From Escherichia coli (GTDB lineage Bacteria; Pseudomonadota; Gammaproteobacteria; Enterobacterales; Enterobacteriaceae), in assembly GCF_044324785.1 (NCBI RefSeq), contig NZ_CP172127.1: a stretch of 64,000 bases of DNA; one strand, 5' to 3'. The translations under genes and the position numbers were made by a program. Numbering within the stretch: position 1 is the stretch's first letter; the number at the start of each line of letters is the position of its first letter. Below are positions 9,480-60,530 of this stretch, piece after piece. The notes under the pieces are model-generated. The model made no database searches, had not been told where the DNA came from, and was given only the letters and a program-made list of their open reading frames with translations.

Positions 9480-11922
<2,443 letters not shown>

Positions 11923-12079: not shown

Positions 12080-12235
12080 ATGATCCGTCTACAGCATGAC
12101 AAACAAAAACAGATGCGTTACGGAACTTTACAAAAACGAGACACTCTAACCCTTTGCTTGCTCAAATTGCAGCTAATGGAGTGGCGTTTCGATAGCGCGT
12201 GGAAATTTGGTTTGGGGAGACTTTACCTCGGATGA
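12080..12235 (+). CDS. rseD: rpoE leader peptide RseD, 51 aa (MIRLQHDKQKQMRYG...GRLYLG)
   Basis: ATG 12080 to TGA 12233-12235; its stop overlaps the rpoE ATG (ATGA); below the ORF-track size cutoff; matches the recalled rpoE leader ORF. Confidence 0.6.
   Translation: MIRLQHDKQKQMRYGTLQKRDTLTLCLLKLQLMEWRFDSAWKFGLGRLYLG
12122..12149 (+). promoter_or_regulatory. SigmaE-dependent rpoE promoter (GGAACTT-N16-TCTAA)
   Basis: Exact sigmaE -35/-10 consensus with 16-nt spacer, about 85 bp upstream of the rpoE ATG and inside rseD. Confidence 0.8.
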
Positions 12236-12807
12236 GCGAGCAGTTAACGGACCAGGTCCTGGTTGAACGGGTCCAGAAGGGAGATCAGAAAGCCTTTAAC
12301 TTACTGGTAGTGCGCTATCAGCATAAAGTGGCGAGTCTGGTTTCCCGCTATGTGCCGTCGGGTGATGTTCCCGATGTGGTACAAGAAGCTTTTATTAAAG
12401 CCTATCGTGCGCTGGATTCGTTCCGGGGAGATAGCGCTTTTTATACATGGCTGTATCGGATTGCTGTAAATACAGCAAAAAATTACCTGGTTGCTCAGGG
12501 GCGTCGTCCACCTTCCAGTGATGTGGATGCCATTGAAGCTGAAAACTTCGAAAGTGGCGGCGCGTTGAAAGAAATTTCGAACCCTGAGAACTTAATGTTG
12601 TCAGAAGAACTGAGACAGATAGTTTTCCGAACTATTGAGTCCCTCCCGGAAGATTTACGCATGGCAATAACCTTGCGGGAGCTGGATGGCCTGAGCTATG
12701 AAGAGATAGCCGCTATCATGGATTGTCCGGTAGGTACGGTGCGTTCACGTATCTTCCGAGCGAGGGAAGCTATTGATAACAAAGTTCAACCGCTTATCAG
12801 GCGTTGA
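12232..12807 (+). CDS. rpoE: RNA polymerase sigma-E factor, 191 aa
   Basis: ORF 12199..12807; internal ATG at 12232 (MSEQLTDQ...); ECF sigma regions 2 and 4. Confidence 0.97.
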   Translation: MSEQLTDQVLVERVQKGDQKAFNLLVVRYQHKVASLVSRYVPSGDVPDVVQEAFIKAYRALDSFRGDSAFYTWLYRIAVNTAKNYLVAQGRRPPSSDVDAIEAENFESGGALKEISNPENLMLSEELRQIVFRTIESLPEDLRMAITLRELDGLSYEEIAAIMDCPVGTVRSRIFRAREAIDNKVQPLIRR

Positions 12808-13490: not shown

Positions 13491-14446
13491 TGAAGCAACT
13501 TTGGTTTGCCATGTCATTAGTGACAGGTAGCCTGTTATTCTCTGCTAACGCCTCGGCCACTCCCGCGTCCGGGGCGTTATTACAGCAGATGAACCTGGCC
13601 AGTCAGTCACTGAATTACGAGCTGTCATTTATCAGCATCAATAAACAGGGTGTTGAGTCTCTGCGTTATCGACATGCACGCCTCGATAACCGTCCTCTTG
13701 CACAATTGTTGCAAATGGATGGCCCGCGCCGGGAAGTGGTACAGCGCGGCAATGAAATCAGCTATTTTGAACCGGGACTTGAACCGTTCACGCTTAATGG
13801 CGATTACATTGTTGATTCTCTGCCATCGCTCATCTATACCGATTTCAAACGCCTTTCTCCTTACTACGACTTTATCTCCGTCGGGCGCACGCGTATTGCT
13901 GATCGTCTTTGCGAAGTCATTCGCGTGGTTGCCCGAGATGGTACACGCTACAGCTACATCGTGTGGATGGACACCGAATCGAAATTACCGATGCGGGTTG
14001 ATCTCCTTGATCGCGATGGTGAAACGCTGGAACAATTTCGCGTGATTGCTTTTAACGTCAATCAGGATATCGGCAGCAGTATGCAGACGCTGGCGAAGGC
14101 AAATTTGCCGCCGTTGCTTTCTGTTCCTGTAGGTGAAAAAGCTAAATTCAGCTGGACGCCAACCTGGTTGCCACAGGGTTTTAGCGAAGTTTCCAGTAGT
14201 CGACGTCCGCTACCGACGATGGACAACATGCCTATCGAATCACGTCTCTATTCCGACGGATTATTCAGCTTCTCGGTAAACGTTAACCGCGCTACGCCAT
14301 CGAGCACCGATCAGATGTTGCGCACCGGGCGCAGAACCGTCAGTACAAGCGTACGTGATAACGCCGAAATCACCATTGTCGGTGAACTGCCGCCGCAAAC
14401 GGCGAAACGCATTGCCGAGAATATTAAGTTCGGGGCAGCGCAATGA
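13490..14446 (+). CDS. rseB: SigmaE regulatory protein RseB
   Basis: 318 aa with signal peptide; start overlaps the rseA stop (TAATG). Confidence 0.95.
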   Translation: MKQLWFAMSLVTGSLLFSANASATPASGALLQQMNLASQSLNYELSFISINKQGVESLRYRHARLDNRPLAQLLQMDGPRREVVQRGNEISYFEPGLEPFTLNGDYIVDSLPSLIYTDFKRLSPYYDFISVGRTRIADRLCEVIRVVARDGTRYSYIVWMDTESKLPMRVDLLDRDGETLEQFRVIAFNVNQDIGSSMQTLAKANLPPLLSVPVGEKAKFSWTPTWLPQGFSEVSSSRRPLPTMDNMPIESRLYSDGLFSFSVNVNRATPSSTDQMLRTGRRTVSTSVRDNAEITIVGELPPQTAKRIAENIKFGAAQ

Positions 14447-14922
14447 TCAAAGAGTGGGCTACCGTCGTCTCCTGGGAAAACGGGCAGGCGCTGGTTAGTT
14501 GTGATGTTAAAGCCTCATGCAGCAGCTGCGCTTCACGCGCCGGTTGCGGTAGCCGCGTGTTGAATAAACTTGGCCCGCAAACCACGCATACCATTGTCGT
14601 ACCCTGTGATGAGCCGTTAGTGCCGGGGCAAAAAGTGGAATTGGGGATCGCCGAAGGCAGCCTGCTTAGCTCCGCATTACTGGTTTATATGTCGCCGCTG
14701 GTGGGATTATTTCTCATCGCTTCGCTATTTCAGCTACTCTTTGCTTCAGATATTGCAGCATTATGCGGTGCGATTCTCGGTGGCGTTGGTGGATTCCTGA
14801 TTGCACGTGGCTGCTCTCGAAAGTTTGCTGCCCGGTCTGAATGGCAACCGATCATCTTAAGCGTGGCATTGCCGCCTGGCCTTGTGCGATTTGAAACATC
14901 TTCGGAAGACGCGAGCCAGTGA
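14443..14922 (+). CDS. rseC: SoxR-reducing system / sigmaE regulatory protein RseC
   Basis: 159 aa; N-terminal Cys cluster and two TM helices; start overlaps the rseB stop (ATGA). Confidence 0.9.
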   Translation: MIKEWATVVSWENGQALVSCDVKASCSSCASRAGCGSRVLNKLGPQTTHTIVVPCDEPLVPGQKVELGIAEGSLLSSALLVYMSPLVGLFLIASLFQLLFASDIAALCGAILGGVGGFLIARGCSRKFAARSEWQPIILSVALPPGLVRFETSSEDASQ

Positions 14923-15119
14923 TTTCACTGGCTTTGTTGCATTTTGCATAACAAATGCGAGGACGTTTCCAGATACCACAATCCATACGGTATGAACATT
15001 TCCTCGCCTCAATGTTGTAGTGTAGAATGCGGCGTTTCTATTAATACAGACGTTAAGCTCAGAACAGCGACTTCTAAAAGCCTGGTTAACCGGGCATTAA
15101 GGCACAATAATCATACTTT

Positions 15120-16919
<1,800 letters not shown>

Positions 16920-18013: not shown

Positions 18014-18054
18014 ATTCCCCCGAAGTTTAAGGTTGGCACCTCCAGGTTGCCACG

Positions 18055-18148
18055 GCACACGAAACAGCGTTGGTCCCCATATACCGGTAAACTGAAACTG
18101 CAGCGAAGCAGTTAGCAGAGCCATGTATATCAGGTCTGTTTCGTGTGC
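18055..18148 (+). promoter_or_regulatory. rnc 5' leader stem-loop (RNase III autoregulatory target)
   Basis: Perfect 13-nt arms GCACACGAAACAG (18055-18067) and CTGTTTCGTGTGC (18136-18148) enclosing 68 nt, 34 nt upstream of the rnc ATG. Confidence 0.7.
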
Positions 18149-18151
18149 TGA

Positions 18152-19764
<1,613 letters not shown>

Positions 19765-21644: not shown

Positions 21645-21726
21645 TTATAAAGTAAAACCCCCGAACTGGTAAGGAACGGGGGTTTTACTTTTTAACTTTA
21701 ATTTTGTGCAGCACACGATTCCAACG
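21645..21726 (-). ncRNA. ohsC: Probable OhsC antitoxin sRNA of the shoB type I toxin-antitoxin pair (boundaries approximate)
   Basis: Plus-strand 21706-21724 (GTGCAGCACACGATTCCAA) repeats shoB 5'-UTR 21955-21973 at 18 of 19 positions, so a minus-strand transcript is antisense to the shoB leader; candidate minus-strand -10 CATAAT (complement of 21733-21738); terminator at 21652-21688. Confidence 0.35.
21652..21693. terminator. Bidirectional intrinsic terminator (acpS on plus strand; probable OhsC 3' end on minus strand)
   Basis: GTAAAACCCCCG / CGGGGGTTTTAC 12-bp stem with T-rich flanks on both strands. Confidence 0.75.
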
Positions 21727-26702: not shown

Positions 26703-29700
26703 ATGATGGAAATTCTGCGTGGTTCGCCTGCATTGTCGGCATTCCGAATCAACAAACTGCTGGCACGTTTTCAGGCTGCCAGGCTCCCGGTTCACACTAT
26801 TTACGCCGAGTATGTCCATTTTGCTGACCTCAATGCGCCGTTAAACGATGATGAGCACGCACAACTTGAACGCCTGCTGAAATATGGCCCGGCACTCGCC
26901 AGCCACGCCCCGCAAGGCAAACTCCTGCTGGTGACCCCGCGTCCTGGCACCATCTCTCCCTGGTCTTCGAAAGCGACCGATATTGCCCATAACTGCGGGC
27001 TGCAACAGGTAAACCGTCTTGAGCGCGGCGTGGCTTACTATATAGAAGCCGGTACGCTGACCAATGAACAATGGCAGCAGGTTACCGCTGAACTGCACGA
27101 CCGCATGATGGAAACGGTCTTTTTTGCTTTAGATGATGCAGAGCAGCTGTTTGCACACCATCAACCGACTCCGGTCACCAGCGTTGATTTGCTGGGGCAG
27201 GGCCGTCAGGCGCTAATCGACGCTAACCTGCGTCTTGGCCTGGCACTGGCGGAAGATGAAATTGACTATTTGCAGGATGCTTTCACAAAGCTTGGTCGTA
27301 ACCCGAACGACATCGAACTGTATATGTTTGCCCAGGCGAACTCCGAGCACTGCCGCCACAAAATTTTTAACGCCGACTGGGTTATCGATGGTGAACAGCA
27401 GCCGAAATCGCTGTTTAAGATGATCAAAAACACCTTCGAAACCACGCCGGATCACGTTCTCTCTGCTTATAAAGATAACGCCGCCGTAATGGAAGGTTCT
27501 GAAGTGGGCCGCTACTTTGCTGACCACGAAACGGGCCGCTACGATTTCCATCAGGAACCGGCGCATATTCTGATGAAAGTCGAAACTCACAACCACCCGA
27601 CTGCGATTTCTCCGTGGCCGGGCGCGGCGACCGGTTCCGGCGGTGAAATCCGCGATGAAGGTGCCACCGGACGTGGCGCAAAGCCGAAAGCTGGTTTGGT
27701 TGGTTTCTCCGTTTCCAACCTGCGAATTCCTGGCTTCGAACAGCCGTGGGAAGAAGATTTCGGTAAGCCTGAGCGCATTGTCACCGCGCTGGACATCATG
27801 ACCGAAGGCCCGCTGGGCGGCGCGGCATTTAACAACGAATTTGGTCGTCCGGCACTGAACGGCTACTTCCGTACTTATGAAGAAAAAGTGAACAGCCACA
27901 ATGGCGAAGAGCTGCGCGGTTATCACAAACCGATCATGCTGGCGGGTGGGATCGGCAACATTCGCGCCGATCACGTACAAAAAGGCGAGATCAACGTTGG
28001 TGCGAAGCTGGTCGTTCTCGGCGGCCCGGCAATGAACATCGGTCTTGGCGGCGGCGCGGCGTCTTCCATGGCATCTGGTCAGTCTGATGCCGACCTCGAC
28101 TTTGCTTCCGTACAGCGCGACAACCCGGAGATGGAGCGTCGCTGCCAGGAAGTGATCGACCGTTGCTGGCAGCTTGGTGATGCCAACCCAATCCTGTTTA
28201 TCCACGACGTTGGCGCAGGCGGTCTTTCTAACGCCATGCCGGAACTGGTGAGCGACGGCGGGCGCGGCGGTAAATTTGAACTGCGCGATATCCTGAGCGA
28301 CGAACCGGGCATGAGCCCGCTGGAAATCTGGTGTAACGAATCCCAGGAACGCTACGTGCTGGCGGTTGCTGCCGATCAGTTACCGCTGTTTGACGAACTG
28401 TGTAAGCGTGAACGAGCGCCATACGCGGTGATTGGCGAGGCCACCGAAGAATTACATCTTTCTCTGCACGATCGTCATTTTGATAATCAACCCATCGATC
28501 TGCCGCTGGACGTGCTACTCGGCAAAACGCCGAAGATGACTCGCGATGTACAAACGCTGAAAGCGAAAGGCGACGCGCTGGCCCGTGAAGGGATCACCAT
28601 CGCTGACGCGGTGAAACGCGTGCTGCATCTGCCGACCGTGGCGGAGAAAACTTTCCTGGTGACCATTGGTGACCGCAGCGTAACCGGCATGGTAGCGCGC
28701 GATCAGATGGTGGGTCCGTGGCAGGTGCCGGTCGCTAACTGCGCGGTCACTACCGCCAGCCTCGATAGCTACTACGGCGAAGCGATGGCAATTGGCGAGC
28801 GTGCGCCGGTTGCGCTGCTGGATTTCGCCGCCTCTGCCCGTCTGGCGGTCGGTGAAGCGTTAACCAATATTGCCGCAACACAGATTGGCGATATCAAACG
28901 CATTAAACTTTCCGCGAACTGGATGGCAGCGGCAGGTCATCCAGGCGAAGATGCGGGCCTGTATGAAGCCGTTAAAGCTGTGGGCGAAGAGCTTTGTCCG
29001 GCGCTGGGCCTGACGATCCCGGTGGGTAAAGACTCTATGTCGATGAAAACCCGCTGGCAGGAAGGTAACGAAGAGCGCGAAATGACGTCGCCGCTGTCGC
29101 TGGTGATTTCTGCATTTGCCCGTGTGGAAGATGTGCGTCACACCATCACGCCGCAGCTTTCTACCGAAGATAACGCATTACTGCTGATTGATCTGGGCAA
29201 AGGCAATAACGCGCTGGGCGCAACGGCGCTGGCGCAGGTTTATCGTCAGCTTGGCGACAAACCGGCAGATGTACGCGACGTCGCGCAACTGAAAGGTTTC
29301 TATGACGCGGTTCAGGCGCTGGTAGCACAGCGTAAGCTGCTCGCGTACCACGACCGCTCTGATGGCGGCCTGCTGGTAACGCTGGCGGAAATGGCCTTTG
29401 CTGGTCATTGCGGCATTGACGCGGATATCGCCACTCTGGGTGACGATCGCCTGGCGGCGTTGTTTAACGAAGAACTGGGTGCGGTGATTCAGGTTCGAGC
29501 CGCTGACCGTGAAGCCGTTGAAGTGGTACTGGCACAGCATGGGCTTGCTGATTGCGTCCATTATGTTGGCCAGGCGGTTTCCGGTGACCGTTTTGTGATT
29601 ACCGCCAACGGGCAGACTGTATTCAGCGAAAGCCGCACTACGTTGCGTGTCTGGTGGGCAGAAACTACCTGGCAGATGCAGCGCCTGCGTGACAACCCGG

Positions 29701-30590
29701 AGTGTGCCGATCAGGAACATCAGGCGAAATCCAACGACGCCGATCCGGGCCTGAATGTGAAACTGTCGTTCGATATTAACGAAGATGTAGCAGCTCCGTT
29801 TATCGCTACTGGCGCGCGCCCGAAAGTTGCCGTACTGCGTGAGCAAGGCGTGAACTCGCATGTTGAAATGGCGGCAGCTTTCCACCGTGCGGGCTTTGAT
29901 GCTATCGACGTGCATATGAGCGACCTGCTGACTGGACGCACGGGACTGGAGGATTTCCACGCCCTGGTCGCGTGCGGTGGTTTCTCCTACGGTGATGTGC
30001 TGGGTGCCGGTGAAGGTTGGGCGAAGTCTATCCTGTTCAATGACCGTGTACGCGATGAGTTTGCAACCTTCTTCCACCGTCCGCAAACGCTGGCGCTGGG
30101 GGTATGTAACGGTTGCCAGATGATGTCTAATCTGCGTGAACTGATCCCAGGTAGTGAGTTGTGGCCACGTTTTGTGCGCAATACCTCCGATCGCTTTGAA
30201 GCGCGTTTCAGCCTGGTTGAAGTGACCCAAAGCCCATCGCTGCTATTGCAGGGGATGGTGGGCTCACAGATGCCGATTGCTGTGTCTCACGGTGAAGGGC
30301 GCGTGGAAGTGCGCGATGCGGCGCATCTGGCGGAGCTGGAAAGTAAAGGGCTGGTGGCACTGCGCTATGTCGATAACTTCGGTAAAGTCACTGAAACCTA
30401 CCCGGCTAACCCGAACGGTTCTCCGAATGGTATTACGGCGGTTACGACTGAAAGTGGTCGAGTCACCATTATGATGCCGCACCCGGAACGTGTTTTCCGT
30501 ACTGTCAGCAACTCCTGGCATCCGGAAAACTGGGGCGAGGATGGCCCATGGATGCGCATTTTCCGCAATGCGCGTAAGCAGTTGGGGTAA
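26703..30590 (+). CDS. purL: Phosphoribosylformylglycinamidine synthase
   Basis: 1295 aa single-chain FGAM synthase with C-terminal glutaminase domain (GVCNGCQ). Confidence 0.98.
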
Positions 30591-30647
30591 GCCGTCAGTC
30601 CATTGGTTTTACAGCCGGATGAGGCATTAAGCACCAACCACTATTAT

Positions 30648-30673
30648 AAGCTCCCAACTTCGGGAGCTTTTTT
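30648..30673 (+). terminator. Rho-independent terminator of purL
   Basis: AAGCTCCC aacttc GGGAGCTT followed by TTTTTT. Confidence 0.85.
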
Positions 30674-30674
30674 G

Positions 30675-30788
30675 TGTCTGTAAATCACGACAATGGGTGG
30701 TTTACCGTGTCGCTTTCTGGCGACACTTAACTGATTGATTTTAATAGTATCTAATAAGTTTATCTTAAGTTGTCTCTTTTTAGCGACA
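30675..30788 (+). promoter_or_regulatory. Three GlrR (QseF-type) activator sites TGTC-N10-GACA at 30675-30692, 30708-30725 and 30771-30788
   Basis: Three exact TGTC-N10-GACA repeats 100-230 bp upstream of the sigma54 promoter; fits the recalled glmY upstream activating sequences. Confidence 0.75.
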
Positions 30789-30877
30789 CAGTGGCTGATT
30801 TACATTCAAATAGCGAAGAAGCCATAAATCCCTCAAAGCAGCGTATAATCAGTACGTTACCAAACTATTTTCTTTAT

Positions 30878-30897
30878 TGGCACAGTTACTGCATAAT
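30878..30897 (+). promoter_or_regulatory. Overlapping sigma54 (TGGCAC-N5-CTGCAT) and sigma70 (-10 CATAAT) promoters of glmY
   Basis: GG at 30879-30880 and GC at 30891-30892 have the canonical 12-nt -24/-12 spacing; CATAAT at 30892-30897 overlaps the -12 element. Confidence 0.8.
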
Positions 30898-30904
30898 AGT
30901 AACC

Positions 30905-31088
30905 AGTGGCTCATTCACCGACTTATGTCAGCCCCTTCGGGACGTGCTACATAAAATTCGAATGACGCACAACAAGGTGCCTGCCGTCCAACTTCTGATA
31001 TCAGCGTAGCTATATCAACCATCGGGCGAAACGTCGAGTTAGGCACCGCCTTATTCCATAACAAAGCCGGGTAATTCCCGGCTTTGTT
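30905..31088 (+). ncRNA. glmY: GlmY small RNA (SroF/tke1), about 184 nt
   Basis: Starts about 12 nt after the -12 element (AGTGGCTCATTCACC...) and ends at terminator hairpin AAAGCCGGG taatt CCCGGCTTT (31063-31085) plus GTTGT; in the purL-glrK gap next to the GlrK/GlrR genes. Confidence 0.75.
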
Positions 31089-31146
31089 GTATCTGAACTT
31101 CCCCTCGGTTAGCATCAGGCTATTCGCGTCTGACGAGAGTAACACC

Positions 31147-32574
31147 TTGAAACGCTGGCCCGTTTTTCCCCGCTCATTACGACAACTGGTAATGCTGGCA
31201 TTTTTGCTGATTCTGCTGCCCCTGTTGGTGCTGGCATGGCAAGCCTGGCAAAGCCTGAATGCGCTTAGCGATCAGGCGGCGCTGGTTAACCGCACTACGC
31301 TTATTGATGCCCGGCGTAGTGAAGCGATGACCAACGCGGCGCTGGAGATGGAGCGTAGTTACCGTCAGTATTGCGTGCTGGACGACCCAACCCTGGCGAA
31401 GGTTTATCAAAGCCAGCGCAAGCGTTACAGCGAAATGCTCGATGCCCACGCAGGCGTGCTGCCGGACGATAAACTCTACCAGGCATTACGTCAGGATTTG
31501 AACAATCTGGCTCAACTTCAGTGTAACAACAGCGGTCCCGATGCTGCCGCCGCCGCACGTCTTGAAGCCTTTGCCAGTGCCAATACCGAAATGGTACAGG
31601 CCACGCGCACAGTGGTGTTCTCTCGTGGGCAGCAGCTTCAGCGTGAAATTGCCGAACGCGGGCAATATTTTGGTTGGCAATCGCTGGTGCTATTTCTGGT
31701 GAGTCTGGTGATGGTGCTACTTTTCACGCGGATGATTATCGGTCCGGTGAAAAATATTGAACGGATGATCAACCGGCTGGGGGAAGGGCGTTCTCTGGGC
31801 AATAGCGTTTCGTTCAGTGGACCGAGTGAGTTACGCTCGGTTGGGCAACGTATTCTTTGGTTAAGTGAGCGCCTGTCATGGCTGGAATCCCAACGTCATC
31901 AATTCTTAAGACATTTATCTCATGAATTAAAAACGCCGCTGGCGAGTATGCGCGAGGGCACTGAATTACTGGCTGACCAGGTTGTCGGGCCGCTTACGCC
32001 AGAGCAAAAAGAGGTGGTGAGCATTCTTGATAGCAGCAGCCGCAATTTGCAAAAGTTGATCGAACAACTGCTTGATTACAACCGTAAACAGGCGGACGGT
32101 GCGGTGGAACTGGAGAATGTTGAGTTAGCGCCACTGGTGGAAATGGTGGTTTCTGCTCATAGCCTGCCCGCACGGGCTAAAATGATGCATACCGACGTCG
32201 ATCTCAAAGCAACAGCTTGCCTGGCGGAGCCAATGCTGCTGATGAGCGTACTGGATAATCTTTACTCCAATGCGGTGCACTACGGGGCTGAATCCGGTAA
32301 CATTTGCCTTCGCAGCAGTTTACATGGCGCGCGGGTTTATATTGATGTCATCAATACAGGCACACCCATTCCGCAAGAGGAACGCGCCATGATCTTTGAA
32401 CCCTTTTTTCAGGGAAGCCACCAGCGAAAAGGGGCGGTGAAGGGCAGCGGTCTGGGATTAAGCATTGCCAGGGATTGTATTCGCCGTATGCAAGGGGAAC
32501 TGTATCTGGTCGACGAGAGCGGGCAAGACGTTTGCTTCCGCATTGAATTGCCGTCGTCGAAAAACACGAAATAA
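31147..32574 (+). CDS. glrK: Sensor histidine kinase GlrK (YfhK/QseE), 475 aa, TTG start
   Basis: ORF 31084..32574; TTG at 31147 gives MKRWPVFPRSL... of recalled length; HAMP, H-box HELKTPL, and ATPase N/G boxes. Confidence 0.85.
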   Translation: MKRWPVFPRSLRQLVMLAFLLILLPLLVLAWQAWQSLNALSDQAALVNRTTLIDARRSEAMTNAALEMERSYRQYCVLDDPTLAKVYQSQRKRYSEMLDAHAGVLPDDKLYQALRQDLNNLAQLQCNNSGPDAAAAARLEAFASANTEMVQATRTVVFSRGQQLQREIAERGQYFGWQSLVLFLVSLVMVLLFTRMIIGPVKNIERMINRLGEGRSLGNSVSFSGPSELRSVGQRILWLSERLSWLESQRHQFLRHLSHELKTPLASMREGTELLADQVVGPLTPEQKEVVSILDSSSRNLQKLIEQLLDYNRKQADGAVELENVELAPLVEMVVSAHSLPARAKMMHTDVDLKATACLAEPMLLMSVLDNLYSNAVHYGAESGNICLRSSLHGARVYIDVINTGTPIPQEERAMIFEPFFQGSHQRKGAVKGSGLGLSIARDCIRRMQGELYLVDESGQDVCFRIELPSSKNTK

Positions 32575-32738
32575 TGCTAACAGCCTATCCCATCAGGCTA
32601 TTTTATTTGCCAGTTTGGCCCTGGGCAGTGCTCGAAATCCTCACGTACGACGTGTACGCTCCGGTTTCTCCGCGCTGTCCATGTCCAGACTGCCTGCAAT
32701 AATTACGCCCACTGGGATAGGCATTAAGTCTGGTGAAT

Positions 32739-33452
32739 ATGCGACACATTTTTCAACGATTATTGCCCCGACGGCTGTGGCTGGCAGGGCTGCCATGTCT
32801 GGCATTGCTGGGTTGCGTGCAGAGTCACAATAAACCAGCCATTGATACGCCAGCAGAAGAAAAAATTCCGGTTTATCAACTGGCTGACTATCTTTCTACT
32901 GAATGTAGCGACATCTGGGCGCTGCAAGGTAAATCAACCGAAACCAATCCGCTTTACTGGCTGCGGGCGATGGATTGTGCTGATCGTTTAATGCCTGCGC
33001 AGTCGCGTCAGCAAGCCCGCCAATATGATGACGGCAGCTGGCAAAATACCTTTAAACAAGGGATTTTGCTCGCCGATGCCAAAATTACGCCGTATGAGCG
33101 CCGCCAGCTGGTCGCGCGTATTGATGTGTTAAGTACCGAGATCCCGGCACAGGTTCGCCCACTGTATCAACTCTGGCGCGACGGTCAGGCGCTGCAACTG
33201 CAACTGGCGGAAGAGCGCCAACGCTACAGCAAACTTCAGCAGTCCAGCGACAGCGAGCTTGATACTTTGCGCCAGCAACATCACGTTCTACAACAGCAAC
33301 TGGAACTCACCACCCGCAAGCTGGAAAACCTGACCGATATTGAACGCCAGCTCTCGACCCGCAAACCGGCTGGAAATTTCTCGCCGGATACGCCGCACGA
33401 GGGTGAAAAGCCCGCGCCATCCACCCATGAGGTCACGCCTGATGAGCCATAA
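32739..33452 (+). CDS. qseG: Outer-membrane lipoprotein QseG (YfhG), 237 aa
   Basis: ORF 32733..33452; ATG at 32739; lipobox LLGC; Q-rich coiled-coil C-terminus. Confidence 0.8.
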   Translation: MRHIFQRLLPRRLWLAGLPCLALLGCVQSHNKPAIDTPAEEKIPVYQLADYLSTECSDIWALQGKSTETNPLYWLRAMDCADRLMPAQSRQQARQYDDGSWQNTFKQGILLADAKITPYERRQLVARIDVLSTEIPAQVRPLYQLWRDGQALQLQLAEERQRYSKLQQSSDSELDTLRQQHHVLQQQLELTTRKLENLTDIERQLSTRKPAGNFSPDTPHEGEKPAPSTHEVTPDEP

Positions 33453-34776
33453 ACCTGCGCATTTATTATTGGTCGATGACGATCCGGGATTGCTGAAACT
33501 GCTTGGCCTGCGTCTGACCAGCGAAGGCTACAGCGTGGTTACGGCGGAAAGTGGTGCTGAAGGATTACGGGTACTGAATCGCGAAAAAGTAGATTTAGTC
33601 ATCAGCGACCTGCGGATGGATGAAATGGACGGTATGCAGCTGTTTGCTGAAATCCAGAAAGTGCAGCCGGGAATGCCAGTAATTATTCTTACTGCGCATG
33701 GTTCTATTCCCGATGCCGTTGCTGCAACACAGCAGGGCGTTTTTAGTTTCCTCACCAAGCCTGTCGATAAAGACGCGCTATATCAGGCAATTGACGATGC
33801 GCTGGAACAATCCGCGCCAGCCACCGATGAACGCTGGCGCGAGGCGATTGTCACCCGCAGCCCGCTGATGCTGCGTTTGCTGGAACAGGCGCGGCTGGTG
33901 GCACAATCAGACGTTAGCGTTTTGATTAACGGCCAGAGCGGCACCGGGAAAGAGATTTTCGCCCAGGCTATCCACAACGCCAGCCCGCGCAACAGCAAAC
34001 CATTTATTGCTATTAACTGTGGTGCATTGCCCGAGCAATTGCTGGAGTCGGAGCTGTTTGGTCATGCGCGTGGAGCGTTTACTGGCGCTGTCAGCAATCG
34101 CGAAGGTTTATTCCAGGCGGCGGAAGGCGGTACGCTATTTCTCGATGAGATTGGCGATATGCCCGCACCGTTGCAGGTTAAACTGCTGCGCGTGTTGCAG
34201 GAGCGTAAAGTGCGCCCGCTGGGCAGTAACCGCGATATTGATATCGACGTGCGGATTATTTCTGCCACTCACCGCGACCTGCCAAAAGCGATGGCGCGCG
34301 GGGAATTCCGTGAAGATCTTTATTACCGCCTCAACGTTGTCAGCCTGAAAATTCCGGCACTGGCGGAGCGCACAGAAGACATTCCGCTACTGGCAAATCA
34401 CCTGTTGCGCCAGGCGGCAGAGCGACATAAACCGTTTGTCCGCGCGTTCTCTACCGATGCGATGAAACGCCTGATGACCGCGAGCTGGCCGGGTAATGTG
34501 CGCCAGTTGGTCAACGTGATTGAACAGTGCGTGGCGCTGACCTCATCTCCGGTGATTAGTGATGCGCTGGTGGAGCAGGCGCTGGAGGGTGAAAATACGG
34601 CGCTGCCAACCTTTGTTGAGGCACGTAATCAGTTTGAACTCAACTATTTGCGTAAGCTGCTGCAAATTACCAAAGGCAACGTCACCCACGCGGCGAGAAT
34701 GGCGGGGCGCAACCGGACAGAATTTTATAAACTGCTTTCCCGACACGAGCTGGATGCAAACGATTTCAAGGAATGA
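33442..34776 (+). CDS. glrR: Sigma54-dependent response regulator GlrR (YfhA/QseF), 444 aa
   Basis: ORF 33340..34776; internal ATG 33442; receiver domain, AAA+ with GAFTGA, C-terminal HTH; overlaps the qseG 3' end by 11 nt. Confidence 0.9.
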
Positions 34777-34800: not shown

Positions 34801-35175
<375 letters not shown>

Positions 35176-60419: not shown

Positions 60420-60530
60420 TAAAAAGTATTCAGAATCAGGCCGGAGTGTTTAACACTCCGTAAACACGGTCGTACATCCAGCCGGTAGCCTGGTTCCTTG
60501 CATTGAGTGATGTACGGAGTTTATAGAGCA

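Follow-up and report, generated by a model that had tools for sequence, protein, structure and literature searches.

The interval between purL and glrK in this stretch of DNA raises the question of whether it encodes the small regulatory RNA GlmY together with everything that controls its transcription, or whether its motifs, and the open reading frames which run through it, are to be read in some other way. The window analysed here is the whole stretch of 64,000 nucleotides from Escherichia coli (contig NZ_CP172127.1 of assembly GCF_044324785.1). An initial annotation, made from the letters alone, had recognised the architecture of glmY, and this reading is borne out by a match to Rfam family RF00128, by the annotation of the K-12 counterpart and by the presence of every motif at the position proposed for it. 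Positions 30675-31091 can be assigned with very high confidence to glmY on an Escherichia coli-type chromosome, and they take in the whole of its transcriptional control region. At the locus itself the evidence consists of the presence and integrity of the sequence, its conservation and the fold of the RNA; the mechanism is taken from published work on K-12 (PMC3045617, PMC4152352, PMC6075780).

The identity of the RNA emerges from an Rfam scan of the whole window, in which GlmY_tke1 (RF00128) matched positions 30905-31052 on the + strand at 147.1 bits (E = 8e-33), the gathering score of the family being 33. A covariance-model search had been named at the outset as the means of checking the assignment; the resulting match covers the model end to end (positions 1-163 of 163), its 5' end lies exactly at the predicted +1, 30905, and its span of 148 nt is that of the active RNA after processing. 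The K-12 MG1655 counterpart, which lies between purL and glrK, is annotated as 'small regulatory RNA GlmY' (b4441, 184 nt) and was formerly named tke1 or sroF. It has the same position, length and ends as the window copy, with 183 of its 184 bases identical, and it maps onto the exact ends of the predicted primary transcript at 30905..31088 on the + strand. The stretch of about 184 nt of non-coding sequence that had been proposed here is this same 184-nt interval, the ends agreeing base for base with those of K-12 glmY. More widely, a match to the 551-bp region is present in 5,425 of 5,426 complete E. coli genomes, the identity being 90-99%, or 95-99% as given for the intergenic region. In K-12 processing removes the 3' end of the 184-nt transcript and leaves an active RNA of 148 nt (PMC4152352); in the window this processed core, which comprises stem-loops 1 and 2 and would represent the RapZ-binding form, is placed at 30905..31052 (+) by RF00128 and the same publication.

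Folded as a single sequence, the 184-nt stretch 30905..31088 reaches -64.2 kcal/mol (z = -5.5). Two stem-loops and a terminator hairpin are obtained, the single-sequence fold, the terminator fold and a fold of 96 sequences all matching the structure line of Rfam. The intrinsic terminator of glmY, at 31058..31091 (+), is a G+C-rich hairpin of 14 pairs with the loop UAAUU, followed by UUUGUUGU (-23.4 kcal/mol, z = -7.3), and the strong terminator first read at 31063-31085 proves to be its core. A consensus promoter/terminator scan of 30500-31300 did not flag the glmY terminator, because the T-run is interrupted (TTTGTTGT), and made a single call, the terminator of purL.

An overlapping sigma-54/sigma-70 promoter has been described at K-12 glmY by Gopel et al. 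in 2011 (PMC3045617) and, reportedly, by Reichenbach et al. in 2009. In the window the sigma-54 promoter (-24 TGGCAC, N5, -12 CTGCAT) occupies 30878..30894 on the + strand and is the sole match; a pattern search for TGGCAC-N5-CTGCA likewise returned the copy at 30878-30893 as the single match in 64 kb. When two mismatches were allowed, 41 matches to the element were found across the whole window against 44 expected, so that no excess is seen. Positions 30877-30893 are identical to TTGGCACAGTTACTGCA, the motif given for K-12 glmY on the basis of sigma-54 ChIP-seq (PMC4591121). The predicted -10 hexamer of a weak, overlapping sigma-70 promoter, CATAAT, lies at 30892..30897 (+) and overlaps the GC of the -12 element (30891-30892), and both elements, with their overlap, are where the initial annotation had put them. 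This hexamer is identical to the characterised -10 hexamer of K-12, and the sigma-70 promoter of E. coli glmY to which that -10 belongs overlaps the sigma-54 -12 element, transcription from both promoters having one start site (PMC3045617). No good -35 is found near glmY, and the consensus scan of 30500-31300 calls no sigma-70 promoter there, the poor -35 being the reason that it is missed. Having passed over both this promoter and the glmY terminator, the scan is uninformative on these two features. The sigma-70 promoter is held to be real on the strength of published mutagenesis of the -10, the sequence alone being insufficient to recognise it. Transcription of glmY in K-12 is dependent on rpoN, glrR and IHF in vivo (PMC3045617).

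Upstream of the promoter lie three GlrR (QseF) sites of the form TGTC-N10-GACA: ABS1 (TGTCTGTAAATCACGACA, an exact palindrome) at 30675..30692, ABS2 (TGTCGCTTTCTGGCGACA) at 30708..30725 and ABS3 (TGTCTCTTTTTAGCGACA) at 30771..30788. They stand at -230, -197 and -134 from the glmY start, each is an exact match, and each is the same in K-12. All three had been picked out as exact repeats in the first reading, and a pattern search of both strands shows them to be the only exact occurrences in the 64 kb window. A count of three is by itself weak, since 0.8 would be expected and at least three were found in 6 of 100 shuffles; all three, however, fall inside 114 bp, and the background for the exact motif, counted in 1,800 control segments of 270 nt taken from related loci, is 0.009 per segment. 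With one mismatch allowed, 14 matches were found in the whole window against 21 expected, which is no excess over chance. As neither the relaxed GlrR search nor the relaxed sigma-54 search rises above chance, only exact matches are informative. In many related loci an exact GlrR match begins at the offset of ABS2 (-197). Three TGTCN10GACA sites for GlrR have been described more than 100 bp upstream of E. coli glmY, of which ABS2, required by the sigma-54 promoter, and ABS3 are both essential and ABS1 is dispensable and less conserved (PMC3045617).

Two predicted sites for IHF, both exact matches to the consensus WATCARNNNNTTR, are found in the same region. The distal site, AATCAATCAGTTA, lies upstream of ABS3 at 30728..30740 on the - strand, and the proximal site, AATCAGTACGTTA, lies between ABS3 and the promoter at 30847..30859 on the + strand and is the same in K-12. 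The exact consensus occurs six times in the 64 kb window, and two of these occurrences flank ABS3. An equivalent arrangement has been published, in which two IHF-like sites flank ABS3 and the distal one (site 1) is essential for sigma-54 activity (PMC3045617). Judged by its position, 30728-30740 would be this essential distal site, and the proximal site at 30847-30859 would, going by the literature, be functional. The distal site has one difference from K-12, at 30733, within the N4 part of the consensus. A separate observation concerns the window as a whole, in which the IHF consensus with one mismatch gives 115 matches against 80.8 expected, a number that no shuffle reaches; this window-wide excess may be a compositional effect.

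The genes on either side place the locus in its usual setting. Upstream lies purL (26703-30590; NF003672, 2274 bits, above the curated cut-off), and directly downstream, on the same strand as glmY, lies glrK(qseE)-qseG-glrR(qseF), a synteny which has been stated to be conserved (PMC6075780). The sensor histidine kinase gene glrK/qseE, encoding 475 aa from a TTG start, is placed at 31147..32574 (+) by RefSeq annotation of homologous DNA, and in NCBIfam it attracts generic histidine-kinase matches alone, none of them over a curated cut-off. It is followed by qseG at 32733..33452 (+; NF007997, 359 bits against a cut-off of 234), whose product is an outer-membrane lipoprotein needed for the activity of GlrK/GlrR (PMC6075780). 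The binder of ABS1-3, the sigma-54-dependent response regulator GlrR (QseF), is encoded at 33442..34776 (+; NF011695 equivalog, 982 bits against a cut-off of 763), and glnB lies downstream at 34837-35175 (NF008111, 243 bits against 202). Between glmY and glrK is a spacer of 58 nt (31089..31146, +), the same as in K-12, which would carry the separate sigma-70 promoter that has been located directly downstream of glmY and serves glrK(qseE)-qseG-glrR (PMC6075780). The published start of transcription from this promoter, 25 bp ahead of the initiation codon of qseE, would fall at about 31122 in the window; no autoregulation of the qseEGF operon by qseF or qseG was found (Gopel and Gorke 2018, PMC6075780). 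On the other side of the locus, the intrinsic terminator of purL (8-bp stem and T-run, 30648-30674) abuts ABS1, which starts at 30675, and it is in the stretch from the purL stop to this terminator (30592-30645) that most of the differences from K-12 and from E. coli strain VCSW5 are found. The promoter within the spacer, the two IHF sites and the 3' processing from 184 to 148 nt were absent from the initial annotation, in which no statement was found to be wrong.

The architecture of glmY recurs in about 100 other species of Enterobacterales. A species-representative genome collection was scanned with a glmY-specific pattern, which yielded 120 loci, about 104 of them true Enterobacterales glmY; upstream features were counted in the 102 glmY loci for which the sequence extended 270 nt or more upstream. 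Of these, 101 have the sigma-54 element, in the form TGGCAY-N5-NTGCH, with its first base between -26 and -28, and 89 have three TGTC-N10-GACA sites, no more and no fewer, when up to one mismatch is allowed, for which the background amounts to 0.075 in 270 nt. CATAAT occupies the -10 position of the window in 38 of the 102, and the window belongs to this CATAAT group. The glmY genes of other Enterobacterales, such as Salmonella, Citrobacter, Enterobacter, Yersinia, Serratia and Photorhabdus, share with the window copy a sigma-54 promoter at about -27, three GlrR sites whose offsets are conserved, and the core of two stem-loops. From 96 distinct processed-GlmY sequences, aligned with MAFFT, RNAalifold derived a consensus of 31 pairs, 6 of them with compensatory changes, which reproduces the Rfam helices; the pattern used to fetch the loci fixes three segments of GlmY, so that the invariance of those columns, and the lack of divergent homologues, are partly built in.

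Two of the fetched loci differ from this picture. In Edwardsiella hoshinae (L024:2193-2351) the 270 nt upstream of glmY are without a recognisable sigma-54 element and without a GlrR site even at one mismatch, the sole such case among the 102 loci. In Escherichia albertii NBRC 107761 (L005:9953-10100), which is of the same genus as the window, the glmY promoter has no exact GlrR site and two with one mismatch; the sequence around -24 differs and CATAAT is kept.

Differences from K-12, counted over an aligned 560 bp, all spare the specified bases of the regulatory motifs. The 314-bp purL-glmY intergenic region accounts for 14 substitutions and a single gap of 1 bp, and the K-12 control region has ABS1-3, the -24/-12 element, CATAAT, the terminator and the specified IHF bases all as in the window. 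Six substitutions cluster at 30811-30841, between ABS3 and the proximal IHF site. It is very unlikely that this cluster, together with the N4 change in the distal IHF site, alters DNA bending and with it the balance between sigma-54 and sigma-70 relative to K-12; against it, ordinary E. coli isolates, VCSW5 among them, carry these alleles too.

A broader doubt would be that the motifs are present and the locus is nevertheless inactive or rewired in this lineage, through decay of the sRNA or loss of the response to GlrR. Across 24000-44000 gene order is fully conserved, and the closest of 5,426 complete E. coli genomes reaches only 98.1-98.5% identity over the 20 kb, so that strain-specific regulatory differences are formally possible; the source may be a lineage that no complete E. 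coli genome represents in the collection. The upstream substitutions and gap just described, and the one substitution within glmY, could be read in the same direction, yet all of them spare the specified bases of ABS1-3, of the IHF sites, of the -24/-12 element and of the -10. The change within glmY, T for A at 30958, affects an unpaired base of an internal loop, and this position varies among species. Furthermore, the window alleles at the glmY locus are also carried by VCSW5, and glrK, qseG and glrR are intact, full-length open reading frames. Loss or rewiring of the locus is therefore regarded as extremely unlikely, and the comparison with K-12 glmY points to no functional difference.

The open reading frames invite a different reading, in which a real small-protein gene overlaps the element. 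Two are present in a mechanical list of open reading frames, one of 79 codons with a TTG start at 30770-31009 (+) and an antisense one of 76 codons at 30915-31145 (-). The overlap of the former with the glmY element had been pointed out in the first reading and is real, the frame beginning one base upstream of ABS3 and running through the promoter into the sRNA. Its TTG start has no visible ribosome-binding site and its product no NCBIfam match, and the K-12 and VCSW5 records contain no CDS annotation at either frame. The stop-free stretch across +1, a crude statistic, measures 27 to 140 codons in related species and 583 and 605 in two further loci, and this variation implies that no reading frame is conserved. 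What is conserved follows the RNA helices and the protein-binding motifs rather than codons, and a small-protein gene on either strand is exceedingly improbable for all that both frames are mechanically there. A coding role for 30770-31009 was rejected on the lack of a family match, of a reference annotation and of a conserved open frame; this frame is almost certainly spurious, and the two are best read as chance open reading frames.

An identification of the RNA with its paralogue GlmZ, which activates glmS by base pairing, instead of with GlmY is vanishingly improbable, and was rejected on clan competition and synteny: the two families belong to one clan (CL00011) and have sequence and structure in common through the first two stem-loops, but GlmY_tke1 is the best-scoring member at 30905-31052 in the Rfam scan, which reports per clan the best-scoring family alone, the purL-glrK location is the conserved position of glmY, the identity to annotated K-12 glmY is 183/184, and E. 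coli glmZ is reported to have a sigma-70 promoter only and no GlrR sites (PMC3045617). The kinship between the two RNAs is nonetheless close. The 5' two-thirds of GlmZ are homologous to GlmY and adopt the same RapZ-binding fold (PMC4152352), and in many genera glmZ has the same GlrR/sigma-54/IHF promoter design as glmY (PMC3045617). They differ in function, as GlmZ pairs with glmS and is a substrate of RNase E/RapZ, whereas GlmY is without that complementarity and acts as a decoy (PMC4152352).

With the locus read as glmY, its operation can be outlined by analogy with K-12. GlrK, aided by QseG, would phosphorylate GlrR, and phosphorylated GlrR would bind the upstream sites ABS1-3. Bending of the DNA by IHF would then allow GlrR to activate sigma-54 RNA polymerase, whilst the weak sigma-70 promoter, with the same start site, would provide basal expression. 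The 184-nt transcript would be shortened from the 3' side until 148 nt are left, and when glucosamine-6-phosphate (GlcN6P) is scarce this 148-nt GlmY would accumulate and, by mimicking GlmZ, sequester RapZ, the adaptor of RNase E. With RapZ titrated, GlmZ would be spared cleavage by RNase E and could pair with the glmS mRNA, activating its translation and so raising the synthesis of GlmS. By homology, the GlmY of the window would thus be a protein-sequestering decoy which acts by titrating RapZ. GlmY is a decoy RNA in the homeostasis of cell-envelope precursors and, in pathogens, has a part in the regulation of virulence.

As far as its sequence goes, the locus is the already known, textbook glmY, and no feature appears to depart from the K-12 paradigm. 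The biology of GlmY is already in the literature, and the copy in the window adds nothing to it. The value of the analysis is that of a quality check, in that the two ends of a known sRNA gene and each of its regulatory motifs were placed to the base by a reading of nothing but raw sequence.

Elsewhere in the window, the relaxed QseF/GlrR consensus TGT-N12-ACA occurs 17 times, and four of these occurrences are clustered at 11503-11922. This cluster, of ~420 bp upstream of the rpoE open reading frame (12199-12807), lies partly inside a divergent open reading frame of 540 aa (10202-11824), and none of its four motifs is an exact TGTC-N10-GACA. The P2 promoter of rpoE is the second published target of sigma-54 and QseF (PMC6075780). 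The Rfam scan also placed four further elements above their gathering thresholds, namely AsrC, the antisense RNA of rseC, at 14407-15238 (-; 507 bits), the rncO leader at 18022-18236 (+; 258 bits), the antitoxin sRNA OhsC at 21649-21725 (-; 101 bits) and the iscRS stability element at 60420-60529 (+; 132 bits).
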